Below are positions 1,484 through 57,704 of a stretch of 64,000 nt of DNA, in pieces. Source of the stretch: Eledone cirrhosa (lineage: Eukaryota). The DNA lies in assembly GCA_964016885.1 (NCBI GenBank), contig OZ024743.1:307148001-307212000 (forward strand), read 5' to 3'. The notes under the pieces were generated by a model, which did no database searches, was not told the DNA's origin, and was given only the letters and a program-made list of their open reading frames with translations. The position numbers and the translations under genes are program-made. Position 1 is the first letter of the stretch. Each line of letters begins with the position of its first letter.

Positions 1484-1784
1484 GACTTTTGATGTATTGA
1501 AGGCTTCTTTGTTTTATTTTCATAATTCTTCGGCTCTGTTTAATTACATTGAGCTATACCTTTTACTGTCATTTCTATAATACGAAGAGGGTGTTTAACT
1601 CCAACACGCTCCAGTATTTTAATCCTTATATATATATATATATATATATATATATGCAAAGTTTTATTTAAATTGTTGGGTTACAACGAGTAAATATTTA
1701 TAACTGATATAAAAGCACTCAACAAGTATTTGGAGTATATTTACGATATTAAATAAATGGAAACTATATTTATAAAACCATATT

Positions 1785-1850
1785 TATTTCATTATATATA
1801 TTTCAGGGATATCATATTAAAAATATGGTATGCCTTCATCAGACAAAATA
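1785..1850 (-). ncRNA. Type I hammerhead ribozyme
   Basis: tattttgt-CTGATGA-aggcataccatat[tttta]atatgatatccct-GAAA-TATATA-TA-atgaaata; palindromic stem III. Confidence 0.8.
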
Positions 1851-3291
1851 CAATATAAACAGTCTTATAAATAGATAGATTTGACATACCTTACACTTCA
1901 ACTTCCATTTAAAAAGTTGATTTGGTAGTGAAAAATGTTAGGGATAGTTATAGAGAAAAAAAAAAAAAAAGAAAAGAAAGAAAGAAAGAAAACGAAGAAA
2001 AAGAAGAAATGCATGTAACGAAAAACAGAGAGAGATAGATATAGAGAGATAGATAGAGAGAAGAAATTCATGTAAAGAAAAAACAGAGAGAGATAGATAG
2101 AGAGAGAAAAAACAGAGGGAGATAGATAGAGAGAGAGAGAGAGAGAGAGAAAAGAGAGAGAGAGAGAGAAAAAATAGAGAGAGATAGATAGAGATAGAGA
2201 TAGAGAGAGAGAAAAATAGGTAGTTGGGCACCAGTTGAATGACGTATCAATGATATATTTATTTATTTATTTATTTATTTATTTAGTTATAGTATTAAGG
2301 TAGAGAGAGATATATGTGGTTAGGAGAGAAAACAGCCGTTACATAGAGAGAAAAGAAAAATATCCAGAGATAAACGAGGCAGATTTAAAACATTATGTTT
2401 CATCAATCTAAAATATCAATTCGTATGAATTAGGTATTATAATGTAAATATCAGTATTCATGAGTGAGACACGTATCAATAATGTGTGAAAAATAATGAT
2501 CATATGTCTAGTTTAAAATTCTTAGGTTTATAATCAGAACTGAGATAAAACTTCAAAAAAAATTGAAATACATAAGTATATATGCACTTTCATGAAAAAA
2601 GAAAAGAAAATAGAAGGTTATCCCAGATTCGACACTATAGACATCCATGTGAATTTACGTGATCAACTCTGCAAATTCTTATTTCACATGAAAACATTCT
2701 CATTGTGCTATAAAAATTCTAGTATACATATATGTGTACATACACACAAATATATATAGAATCTACATTAATTTTAACAATAATATTCTTGCCTTTACTC
2801 TACATGATTATCGTTCAAGCATAGAATAGACAACAGATATCAATATATCAATAAAAATATTAAAAATATTAAAAAAATATTTAAAAATATTAAAAAATAT
2901 AAAAAAATATAATTAAAACGCCAAGAAAATTCCCAGAGTATCTCGGGCCGTAATAAAACACAGTATGCCCCGCATATCAACCACAGAAATCTACCCTTCA
3001 AATTTATTTGACAATATATTGCCAAGTTCATTAGAATCAAAAGCAAACAAAACCAAAATTATTCACCAAATCCTGTCTAGCAGAAATCATTCCAAAAGTT
3101 TAGGATACCCATTTGATCTACAGATGGTCTTATATTTATTATAGAAGTTTATCTAGTGTAAAATTTATTCGATATATTTGGAGCATCATCTTTTAGGGTA
3201 GTTTAATTATTCATGAAGAATGTTTAAAAAAAAGAAATCGAAAGATTTATCGGCGAGTTTCATAAATAATTACAAATCTTAAGTAAATATA

Positions 3292-3600
3292 CTACATTTT
3301 AAATTTATATTTATATTTAAAAGTTGAGTTCAATCTATGTCTGCAGCAACTGAATAAATTTGTCCGTAAATTAAGGGAATTTTTAGATTTTAGTATAAAG
3401 AATATCTCCTCCGCGCAGAGGTCACATGTCTCAGAAGATGAATTAAAAGGAATCCCTCTTGAGACTATATTCCAAGCCGTCGAATATCCAACGTTATCAT
3501 GCTTAAGTTGCCAGAGTAAGCCTGATAGTGATGTTGAAGATTTTTTTGCTTGGATCTGTGAAAGAATTCTTGTGGTTATTATAGCGAAGTTTAAATTCTG
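3292..3600 (-). pseudogene. Penelope GIY-YIG endonuclease C-terminal fragment
   Basis: TSLSGLLWQLK...W.IV...CDLCAEE...LNLRTNLFSCCRHR, typical of the PLE endonuclease C-terminus. Confidence 0.7.
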
Positions 3601-4853
3601 TCGAGGTGGAACCAACATAGTTAAAAGAATTTATTCAGTTGCTGCAGACATAGATTGAACTCAACTTTTAAATATAAATATAAATTTAAAATGTAGTATA
3701 TTTACTTAAGATTTGTAATTATTTATGAAACTCGCCGATAAATCTTTCGATTTCTTTTTTTTAAACATTCTTCATGAATAATTAAACTACCCTAAAAGAT
3801 GATGCTCCAAATATATCGAATAAATTTTACACTAGATAAACTTCTATAATAAATATAAGACCATCTGTAGATCAAATGGGTATCCTAAACTTTTGGAATG
3901 ATTTCTGCTAGACAGGATTTGGTGAATAATTTTGGTTTTGTTTGCTTTTGATTCTAATGAACTTGGCAATATATTGTCAAATAAATTTGAAGGGTAGATT
4001 TCTGTGGTTGATATGCGGGGCATACTGTGTTTTATTACGGCCCGAGATACTCTGGGAATTTTCTTGGCGTTTTAATTATATTTTTTTATATTTTTTAATA
4101 TTTTTTAATATTTTTTAATATTTTTAATATTTTTAATATTTTTATTGATATATTGATATCTGTTGTCTATTCTATGCTTGAACGATAATCATGTAGAGTA
4201 AAGGCAAGAATATTATTGTTAAAATTAATGTAGATTCTATATATATTTGTGTGTATGTACACATATATGTATACTAGAATTTTTATAGCACAATGAGAAT
4301 GTTTTCATGTGAAATAAGAATTTGCAGAGTTGATCACGTAAATTCACATGGATGTCTATAGTGTCGAATCTGGGATAACCTTCTATTTTCTTTTCTTTTT
4401 TCATGAAAGTGCATATATACTTATGTATTTCAATTTTTTTTTGAAGTTTTATCTCAGTTCTGATTATAAACCTAAGAATTTTAAACTAGACATATGATCA
4501 TTATTTTTCACACATTATTGATACGTGTCTCACTCATGAATACTGATATTTACATTATAATACCTAATTCATACGAATTGATATTTTAGATTGATGAAAC
4601 ATAATGTTTTAAATCTGCCTCGTTTATCTCTGGATATTTTTCTTTTCTCTCTATGTAACGGCTGTTTTCTCTCCTAACCACATATATCTCTCTCTACCTT
4701 AATACTATAACTAAATAAATAAATAAATAAATAAATAAATATATCATTGATACGTCATTAATTTTTTCCGTTTATATATATATGTGTAAGAATATTTTCG
4801 AAACTATATATATATATATATATATATATATATATATATATATATATATATAC

Positions 4854-5464
4854 ATGGTGGCTGCCAACTCGTTTTCGAGTACGGCCACTATTTTATATCC
4901 ATGTAGGAGAACCCCTATCTATGCGCTGAACGAGTGTGACTTTTTAGTCCAGCCAGCGACTTGAAAATTCTGGTACAAACACTACACTTGTGACAATTAC
5001 TGACACATAGTGCTGGGCCCTTGGTACCATGTGACGACAAGTGCAGAGAGATCTCCAGATATAAATCAATGCCTGTGCCGTGAAGCTTTTATAGTGAGCA
5101 AAGGCACTGCACAAAGCCAGTCCCACTCTCTTAACCAAGATGATATTTACCAAAAAGAAGAACAAGCCAACATCATTGGATACCATCAGAGTTGCCGGTG
5201 TTATATCAGAGTTTTCCTTCTCCTAGAATTCTGCCTTGACAAAGGCTAAGGGGTCATCTCTCCCGGTGATTTTGGATGGGCATTGACTCTTAAGAGCTCC
5301 TTTGCCCTTTGACAGGTTTTGTTTTTAGTCCTGCAGGATGTCCAAAGTCACCCTCCTCACCAAGAAACCTTGGTGGGGTTGCCAGTTTAGTCGCCAACGA
5401 CCCGACCATGGGACAGGTTGTACTGGAATACATGTTACCAGTAGCACCAACTGGTGACCTGACA
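4854..5464 (-). repeat. About 610-bp interspersed repeat flanked by microsatellites
   Basis: Inverted near-identical copy at 21207-21816; diverged partial copy at 10088-10280. Confidence 0.8.
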
Positions 5465-5590
5465 TAAAATATAATATACATACATACATACATACATACA
5501 TACATACATACATACATACATACATACATATATATATATATATATATATATATATATATATATATATATATATATATATATATATATATA

Positions 5591-56019: not shown

Positions 56020-56142
56020 TAATTGTTTCTACTTTTGGCACAAGGCCAGCAATTACCCAGTACATTACTGTTACTTTATTTTATCGACCCCGTAAGGATG
56101 AAAGGCAAAGTTGACCTCGGCGGGATTTGAACTCAGAATGTG
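56020..56142 (-). mobile_element. SINE fragment
   Basis: Same family as 41013, reverse orientation. Confidence 0.75.
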
Positions 56143-56149
56143 AGGGCAT

Positions 56150-57146
56150 TTGATTGTTCCAGCACCTCAGCCTTGCCATCACCCCAGGTAACTCTGAGAG
56201 CGTGCTGGCTTGCCTCAAAAATTATTAGAGAGGTTTCTCAGTGCTCCTCGCTATATTGTTATCTTTTGCTCTGGTAGCAGCTCGTTTGTCTACCCCTTTC
56301 GCCTGCCTTTTGTTGATGTGGTCTAAGATGTGGGCATTACGTGCTTCTCTTTCTTTTTTTTCCTTTCGCTTTCCTCTGTATATATTATATTTGTTAGTGT
56401 TTTCGTTCTGTATCCTTTATATTAAATTTTTATAGAAATGAGTTTTAAAAACAGAGTTAAACTGTGTTGATAATAAATAAATAAAACGTTATACTTGTTT
56501 TACCCTCCCATTTCCAATTCATCAAACGTTATCATGACTGCATGTGTGTGTTTGTGTAAATGTATATGTGTGAATGTGTGTTTGTGTAAATGTGTATGCG
56601 TGAACGTATGTGTATTTGTGTGAATGTATGTCCGTGAGCGTTTATTTTTATAAGTTTGTGTTTGCGCGATTATAGTTACAATATATATCTGTCACAGCCA
56701 CTCTTCTCTTTATATACTCACACATACAATCTCTCTTTCTCACTCTAGCAATTTTATAAAATCAAAGAACAACATACACACATGCACACACATCACCGTG
56801 TTAAAAAAAATCAAAATCGCTTCATCTTTCTCTTTCACTCTCTCTCTCTATAATATATATTATAGATATACCGGAAGTATTGAAATTTGAATTTTTTAAA
56901 AGAAGTGAGTCTTGAACACATCATCATCATCATCATCATTTTACGTCCGCTTTTCGCTGCTTGCAAGGGTGGAACTATGCAATAATATTCTTAATATATG
57001 TTTTAAAATGTGTTACGAAATTTGGTAGATAAATTATGTAATCATTCATTATTTATTCAAAGTAATCCAACTTATTTTAAAAACTGGATAAAAAATTGTA
57101 TTCTGGATGCAGTCTCGCAGTCATTTCTTTATTATAGTTAAGATAT
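56150..57146 (-). mobile_element. Helitron-related composite repeat carrying a CRE 3' end
   Basis: 5' TCttaactataataaag; homologous to 26876-28430. Confidence 0.6.
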
Positions 57147-57171
57147 ATATATATATATATATATATATATA

Positions 57172-57309
57172 TAGTTTTATAGATAAATAGATTCGACATA
57201 CCGTTATAACACCGACTTCCATTTGAAGAGGTTTACGCTGCCAGCGTAAACCTCTTCAAATGGAAGTCGGTGTTATAACGGCATGTCGAATCTATTTATC
57301 TATAAAACT
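57172..57309. repeat. Near-perfect 138-bp hairpin between (TA)n tracts
   Basis: Centre at 57241; arms similar to 1860-1920 of the PLE. Confidence 0.85.
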
Positions 57310-57704
57310 ATATATATATATATATATATATATATAAAGTACAGAACAATCAAATTTATGTTTAATACATTTTATTGCTGACAATCGTTTCTTCTTTATG
57401 ATTGTTCTGTAGAATAGGAATTTAATTATGTGTTTAAACTTTGCCAATACTCCGATGAATCTAAATGGCTGTTTGGAAGAAACGATTGTCAGCAATAAAA
57501 TGTATTAAACATGGTTTTGAGTGTTCTGTACTTTATATTCCTGCTCTGTAAGGCATCTGATGTGTTTACATTGAGCTATTTGCTATTTTTCATACCGGTA
57601 ATAAGGTGGTAAAAAATAAAAAATACTGACCTTTCCTATTTATAATTATATATAGTTTATATATAAGTATAAATAATATTATTATTATTATATATATATA
57701 TATA

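Follow-up and report, generated by a model that had tools for sequence, protein, structure and literature searches.

Paired bulged hairpins in the leaders of Hydra-clade Penelope-like elements and the insertion ends that lie beside them

A 64,000-nucleotide (nt) stretch of the Eledone cirrhosa genome (assembly GCA_964016885.1, contig OZ024743.1, positions 307,148,001 to 307,212,000, forward strand; hereafter the window) carries many repeats inserted into (TA)n. A first-pass annotation had reported that these repeats, described as unrelated, share a small bulged hairpin about 40-85 nt upstream of the 3' (TA)n junction. By their sequence motifs, the carriers are Hydra-clade Penelope-like elements (PLEs) or non-coding derivatives of them. 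The reported hairpin, here hairpin A, is one of a pair; hairpin B lies 33-79 nt downstream, just past the junction. In a typical insertion the direct end lies before B and the inverted end before A, about 6 nt from each. On this pattern, each leader hairpin probably binds the reverse transcriptase (RT)-endonuclease of the element and fixes an internal start of reverse transcription. The motif works like a retrotransposon RNA recognition signal, a known kind, in an arrangement that is new. It appears to be an RNA motif not described before, which occurs in pairs across the clade and follows a sharp rule of position; no description of it was found in the accessible literature on PLEs, hammerheads, hairpins, tails, retrozymes and octopus.

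The hairpin motif in the window and the genome

A motif scan of the window (RCTC, at least 3 upper pairs, TT, GAGY) recovered every strict example that had been quoted, and all the quoted hairpins can be found at their places. There were 13 matches with cognate outer pairs, 12 of which have (TA)n 40-110 nt downstream, as do 9.4% of window positions. Non-cognate outer pairs gave 1 match and none near TA, and the other 15 dinucleotide bulges gave 0-2 matches each. In 100 local dinucleotide shuffles of the window the mean was 0.62 matches, and the 12 matches near TA exceed a shuffled mean of 0.02. The 13th strict match (7334-7373, minus strand), away from (TA)n, is a hairpin B and not noise. The four cases listed as weaker fared unevenly: 43940 is a strict match, 12991 and 44535 (12967-12996 and 44521-44540, both plus strand) satisfy a relaxed rule of 2 bp in the upper stem, and 12722 looks like a 5636-family copy that has mutated (TT-AAGT).

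The consensus of the motif is GCUC-Y..R-U(U/A/C)-GAGC-RCU. The lower 4-bp stem, reported as covarying, does so at the outer pair only (G-C, A-U, also U-A), and CUC/GAG is invariant. Likewise the TT bulge keeps its first U, and the second base is U, A or C, sometimes G. The RCU 3' of the right arm is also conserved in the leader clusters described below (C in 69/73 and U in 69/73 hairpins). An Rfam 15 scan of the window returned 92 matches at E<=1, none of them credible for the hairpins; only Hammerhead_1 is relevant. A remnant of hammerhead helix III was excluded as the source of the motif, since no GAAA precedes the stem and the outer pair is mostly G-C.

A restricted motif pattern matched the whole 3.0-Gb genome 126,705 times, against 886 matches with a reversed control, and a looser pattern gave 25 matches in 250 kb of arbitrarily chosen stretches. 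In 735 kb of genome loci, which are search-enriched for motif carriers and partly overlapping, 150 of 176 matches lie 20-110 nt before TA repeats. Among matches near TA with a TT or TA bulge, 132 have a cognate outer pair and 3 a non-cognate one. The window controls and shuffles, together with the genome-wide control, rule out chance or TA-rich bias as the source of the motif. A single recently diverged family is excluded as well, for the 150 matches near TA fall into 27 nucleotide clusters (a few probably spurious) and RT identity ranges from 25 to 75%. Classing by the motif assigns over 100,000 non-coding repeat fragments of this genome to a Hydra-derived origin.

Carriers of the motif

Used as a genome query, window positions 1380-1626 found 30 loci; of the 29 listed, 4 run past the usual end, through hairpin B, into a PLE open reading frame (ORF). 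Full copies of this family, family 1 (L112-L115), have a single ORF of ~890 amino acids with an RT plus a GIY-YIG endonuclease at the C-terminus (FDIDAYY, YRDD, IVY..YIG). In the accessible text of PMC8557442 the Hydra clade is defined by the C-terminal GIY-YIG, RW[KR], DKT, CxCX5C, and CxxC plus CxH around conserved E and N, with no CCHH. The family-1 ORF carries RWRA and has DKT in place of DKG (R37, W38, [KR]39 and D115-K116-T117 are conserved across 62 relatives), and its further motifs read CNCRVSANC (CxCX5C linker), CNLC..E (CxxC) and N..CPH (CxH); CCHH is absent. The carriers also show the hammerhead in the pseudo-long terminal repeat (pLTR) and the (TA)n insertion of the clade. A Pfam search with the Hydra ORF of L114 found nothing, and a model of a relative had TERT as its best match. 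The assignment to the Hydra clade is by these defining motifs, with published reference sequences compared by reading.

Through tandem copies, the window families at 1533, 1715, 5636, 43940 and 50515 are joined to Hydra-type ORFs, which agrees with the earlier suggestion that the carriers are PLE-type. The families at 6901, 7688/44152, 12991 and 45730 run on into non-coding sequence. Non-coding units are ~530-620 nt long and keep both hairpins in all examined. The unit at 6851-7600 has a type I hammerhead; no canonical hammerhead was found in those at 7600-8290, 8600-9130 and 44905-45530.

An asparagine-rich insert lies between thumb and linker in the family-1 ORF (L112-L115, residues about 480-630); similar inserts are reported for Adineta Penelope elements in the part of PMC3846280 consulted.

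The idea that the motif is a general trait of (TA)n-inserted PLEs is unsupported. A PLE of another clade at 29311-31487 (minus strand) has no match; its relative in L033 has none either, and the single match in L128 is unpaired and falls within the ORF. This element has an RT with YVDD, a CxxC linker, a C-terminal GIY-YIG and one frameshift. It has a hammerhead and is inserted in (TA)n; its inverted pLTR continues beyond the direct end as far as a second one, and it may have a paired signal of its own.

Leader layout and covariation

In tandem copies the order is hammerhead, hairpin A, a 33-79-nt spacer, hairpin B and ATG. Metagenome contigs searched with an alignment of 62 Hydra-type proteins yielded 78 loci with an identical leader layout, and the motif is always on the hammerhead and coding strand. 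The reported placement of the hairpin, downstream of the hammerhead on the same strand, is borne out. Three double-hairpin patterns gave 3,412, 815 and 1,137 matches in the genome against 417, 52 and 17 for their controls, with some false matches in the lists, for example one LINE (long interspersed nuclear element) family in the 815-match set.

Covariation was assessed by anchored counts of arm pairs in leader clusters. The 201 ORF starts of all loci, from this genome and the metagenome, formed 51 clusters, 41 of them with a usable leader; the 10 dropped clusters comprise seven truncated or mis-assigned, one with a single hairpin (L164) and two with deviant forms (L174, L152). Hairpin arms were found by sequence only, as the nearest [GAT]CTC[CT] before T-N-GAG, with one hand correction (L163). 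This located hairpin A in 33 clusters and hairpin B in 40, with 32 clusters having the pair, and the RTs of the leader clusters have a median identity of 44%. The outer pair in A is G-C 24, A-U 4, G-U 2, U-A 2 and A-C 1 times, and in B G-C 36, U-A 2 and A-C 2 times.

The upper stem was said to vary yet stay paired, and this is upheld: upper pair 1 is Watson-Crick in 33/33 A and 40/40 B hairpins. In A it is U-A in 18 and C-G in 15, and shuffling of partners gave a mean of 16.6 Watson-Crick pairs, with 0 of 5000 shuffles reaching 33. Upper pairs 2-4 of A are likewise above partner shuffles (P at most 0.001). Hairpin B has a shorter upper stem, with C-G at pair 1 in almost every case. When placed on an RT tree that covers 31 of the 33 clusters, each by a single piece of alignment, upper pair 1 of A switches 9 times, and both sides change every time.

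In many cases the GAGY-RCUC after a stem can pair with itself. The base in the tail tends to change along with the outer pair, as in the GAGA-UCU of two B hairpins, and this may allow strand swapping between A and B or between molecules.

Published consensi compared by eye also carry the motif. Hydra-2_Amil and Hydra-2_Ajap end 27-28 nt after a hairpin, and Hydra-1_Ajap starts with both A and B; the motif-bearing consensi come from coral and sea cucumber. Five right-arm 9-mers matched the supplement of Craig et al. at 8 places, of which 4 are Hydra leaders and 4 lie within Naiad/Chlamys sequence; line breaks may hide further matches.

Positions of the insertion ends

Examination of 6,812 TA runs gave 171 de-duplicated (TA)n junctions within -55..+12 of a hairpin, each scored as an interval to accommodate TA microhomology. 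Of the 68 direct-copy junctions at B, 60 are compatible with -6 and 64 overlap -9..-3. One family is pinned there to -7..-6, and another gives -8..-6 and -6..-4, shared only at -6. In the 7688 family, the gap from the end to a B of the TCTC/GAGA type is exactly 6 nt. At A, -6 is included in 74 of 103 junctions and 94/103 overlap -9..-3; the ends before A are mostly inverted copies. From 216 terminal A copies, 75 have an inverted match in the sequence at hand; 42 of these stop -9..-2 before A, 13 run through A (some of them mis-anchored or neighbouring copies), and the rest are scattered. The metagenome loci yielded 8 junctions, and every one stops at -8..-3.

The reported hairpin does not stand at a fixed distance from the 3' (TA)n junction, as the distance from A to the direct end has family modes from 25 to 91 nt. 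The hairpin is tied to element ends all the same: the 3' junction sits ~6 nt before the second hairpin, and the reported one marks the inverted end. With the direct end before B and the other end before A, the optional 'tail' of PLEs is A plus the spacer. Terminal insertions lack hairpin B, which is also not in the (TA)n target, and both insertion ends read sense-outward into (TA)n.

A model for the start of reverse transcription

Since B is neither copied nor in the target, it must act on the transcript, and ends that both read sense-outward are as expected if a target 3'-OH primed each. In the model, the endonuclease would cut both strands of (TA)n. One target 3'-OH would prime at B-6 and give the direct end, with spacer and A copied as the PLE tail; the other would prime at about A-6 and give the inverted end. 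The two cDNAs would then be joined head to head. This would amount to twin priming with both sites programmed, and a dimer of the protein may carry it out. Every start site would have its own hairpin, with an RT held about 6 nt from it, and non-coding units that keep both hairpins would be mobilised in trans. A more specific form, in which a dimer of the telomerase-related RT sits on two TAR-like hairpins, each the ruler for one cDNA start 6 nt upstream, is put forward tentatively, at somewhat below an even chance.

The closest known system is the Poseidon PLE PAc (Frangieh et al. 2024, PMC11167929). According to the accessible text of that study, its protein cuts and extends both strands, RT starts internally at two sites bounding the tail, hammerhead cleavage is not required, a dimer is predicted, and an RNA binding motif is merely hypothesised. 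The two internal starts, the extension of both strands and the predicted dimer are all like the Hydra case. The Poseidon starts lie at an AC-rich stem-loop inside the ORF, with the binding motif not identified in the parts of PMC11167929 at hand, whereas in Hydra a repeated covarying motif stands in the non-coding leader, 3' of each start.

The same end positions are predicted if the hairpins direct cleavage of the RNA 6 nt upstream, by the element protein, a host nuclease or the RNA itself, with RT starting at the free 3' ends. Cutting at a fixed distance from a bulged hairpin is common nuclease logic, and some two-hairpin units have no canonical hammerhead. No base is conserved at or around the site, however, which is merely AT-rich, and a cut before A would take the tail off that template. 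Initiation in Poseidon, moreover, is internal to uncut RNA in the portions of PMC11167929 consulted. RNA cleavage is considered unlikely.

The motif could instead act as DNA, where the near-palindromic GAGC-ACTC or an extruded single-strand hairpin would be recognised by the GIY-YIG endonuclease and DNA copies cut or resolved into ends. GAGY-RCUC is indeed near-palindromic in many families, and the accessible part of PMC11167929 reports that the D. virilis endonuclease required the sequence of the tail in its DNA. In duplex DNA, however, there is no need for arms 6-65 nt and more apart to pair strictly; neither terminal copies nor target contain B; and the motif strand is constantly that of the hammerhead and the coding sequence. 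Action as DNA appears improbable.

Equally improbable is a role in which the hairpins bind a PLE protein or host factor for ribonucleoprotein assembly, translation control or hammerhead assistance, and the bound protein exposes the adjacent AU-rich strand to annealing with (TA)n. B does lie a short way before the ATG, ends persist in a family without B, and the stretch before each hairpin is AU-rich and often begins with UA. Yet leaders are AU-rich throughout, while the ends pile up at one offset across families that differ in sequence. Non-coding units keep B, so that translation is not the reason for B.

Several observations weigh against hairpin-fixed internal starts on RNA. In A, G-U and A-C number 7 and 3, in B 3 and 6; these counts do not separate RNA from DNA as the acting form. 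Isolated hairpins are weak (folding z -2.5 to +0.1), and pairing probability in the folded leader exceeds 0.5 in only 22/32 A and 22/32 B. TA microhomology widens the end intervals to 3-4 nt. At A, -5 fits as well as -6 (74/103), and there is more scatter, 6 of the junctions lying exactly at -8. In the 50515 family the ends are fixed and a Hydra ORF is present, yet its tandem copies have no recognisable hairpin B. Three of the six published consensi compared by eye (Hydra-1_Amil, 1_Obim and 1_Crog) have deviant forms only. Finally, sequence upstream of A is duplicated; a second template or a second pass would be required for this, and the model offers no explanation of it.

In the 50515 family (L331, L334, L337, L338, at about 1545-1575), a right-arm remnant is seen at the place of B, overlapping a possible GCAC/GUGC hairpin.

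Comparison with known systems

LINE RTs of the L2/CR1 type read 3' stem-loops that are shared with SINEs (short interspersed nuclear elements). The likeness is that a small RNA hairpin serves as cis signal and is kept by non-autonomous partners. The LINE stem-loop is single, 5' of the start, and copied, whereas the Hydra hairpins are paired, lie 3' of the start and mark both ends.

The Hydra-clade account of Craig et al. (2021, PMC8557442), in the parts consulted, has the same protein motifs, pLTR hammerhead, (TA)n targets, direct and inverted pLTRs and optional tail as seen here. It describes the hammerhead and no downstream hairpins ('hairpin' occurs 0 times in the main text); the hairpins are nonetheless present in Hydra consensi deposited with it. 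Non-LTR retrozymes, in the accessible text of PMC7229834 and bioRxiv 10.64898/2026.07.22.740005, are non-coding tandem units with a type I hammerhead, as is the unit at 6851-7600, and are proposed to use PLE enzymes; no cis signal is named in that text. The Hydra-derived units differ in their ~530-620 nt, in the lack of a canonical hammerhead in several, and in their two hairpins.

The order purine, bulged U, G-C, A-U, G-C resembles that of the TAR/7SK motif (A22, U23, G26, A27, G28), with the loop on the other side. In the accessible text of PMC6189040, TAR is read through a U23.A27-U38 triple and arginines at G26 and G28. The invariant Hydra bases match those read in TAR, which suggests a similar fold by analogy. 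Speculatively, recognition of the invariant U, G, A and G would take place in the major groove, after the manner of the TAR/7SK arginine-sandwich motif, and a conserved basic and aromatic N-terminal motif of the protein is a candidate reader. Of 81 anchored GAG/GGG..CT sites, 75 have U as the first base of the bulge and the other 6 are not hairpins, and a pattern with a non-U bulge gave 16,927 genome matches against 12,222 for its control. No covariation for the U.A-U triple was found, the positions being invariant, and no C.G-C variant family appeared among the first 100 matches listed. Unlike TAR, the Hydra motif has the conserved RCU tail, and the likeness is at most a convergent fold.

The recognition of RNA by the PLE protein and the reason for optional tail and inverted ends are open questions in the field, as far as the consulted parts of PMC11167929 and PMC8557442 go. 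The paired hairpins offer a defined, mutable target with a numeric prediction, a start 6 nt upstream of each. If the more specific, dimer-based form of the model is true, programmed twin priming would explain the PLE tail and inverted ends; the hairpin pair would be the signal borrowed by retrozyme-like units, and is a candidate cis signal for retrozyme mobilisation; and ~150 nt of leader would make a portable tag for writing RNA into (TA)n sites. As PLE RTs are the sister group of telomerase, an RNA anchor at a fixed offset bears on the origin of template-positioning elements.

Features of the window

Family 1 has its type I pLTR hammerhead at 1436..1480 (+; Rfam RF00163, 29.1 bits, below the gathering score of 34, E 0.0047), followed by hairpin A (GCTC-tgt..aca-TT-GAGC) at 1533..1554 (+) and the spacer or 'tail' at 1555..1626 (+), whose junction falls 6-7 nt before the hairpin B of tandem copies. 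The A hairpin at 1717..1736 (-) belongs to an ACTC/GAGT family whose tandem copies (L213, L219, L258) have B and a Hydra ORF. The A hairpin at 5638..5661 (-), linked to an ORF via L210 and L254, lies in a fold-back insertion (5592 to about 5775) with the tail end at 5592 and the inverted end ~5 nt before A. Other fold-back insertions carry A at 43921..43945 (+; tandem copy L239 has B and a Hydra ORF), 44521..44540 (+; inverted end ~5 nt before A) and 57543..57576 (+; inverted end ~4 nt before A), and another A of the 57543 family is at 43559..43592 (-).

Among the non-coding units, a tandem unit of ~530 nt with the order B, hammerhead, A has A at 6903..6927 (-) and B at 7334..7373 (-), the sole strict match not adjoining (TA)n; the A of the preceding unit, at 7432..7456 (-), lies 58 nt before that B. 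A unit of ~600 nt has A at 7690..7712 (-) and, after the 6-nt gap TATTAA, a B of TCTC/GAGA form with a ~76-nt insert at 8125..8208 (-), a junction pattern with 325 genome matches and 0 in the control. The same family recurs at 44154..44176 (-), and the A at 23085..23110 (+) clusters with 7690-type non-coding families. The weak A at 12967..12996 (+) has a tandem copy (L259) with hairpin B, downstream of which no ORF motif was found. Similarly, the A with a 50-nt insert at 45676..45735 (+) has tandem copies with B (L247, L277, L288), and no ORF motif was found past it. The A of the 50515 family is at 50517..50535 (-), where a Hydra ORF follows in tandem copies. Two A hairpins have variant bulges: UA at 43106..43126 (+), unlisted in the first-pass annotation, and UG at 44985..45014 (-), within a unit-length non-coding monomer (about 44909-45523).

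This monomer (minus strand) starts just before hairpin B and stops 6 nt before the next B position; it is flanked by (TA)n and has no canonical hammerhead, which suggests that the template was circular or in tandem. Inverted repeats that are very long and nearly perfect occur at about 1815-2240 versus 4200-4760, 2240-4740 and 11050-12150, some with Hydra endonuclease remnants (3331-3655), consistent with fold-back insertions. The window also holds a DNA transposon at 16980-19690 (-), hAT-like by appearance, which has terminal inverted repeats and whose transposase-like ORF (17079-19171) is split, and long LINE ORFs with endonuclease and RT at 35420-38862 (+) and 47432-49642 (+), L1/Tx1-like and RTE-like by appearance.

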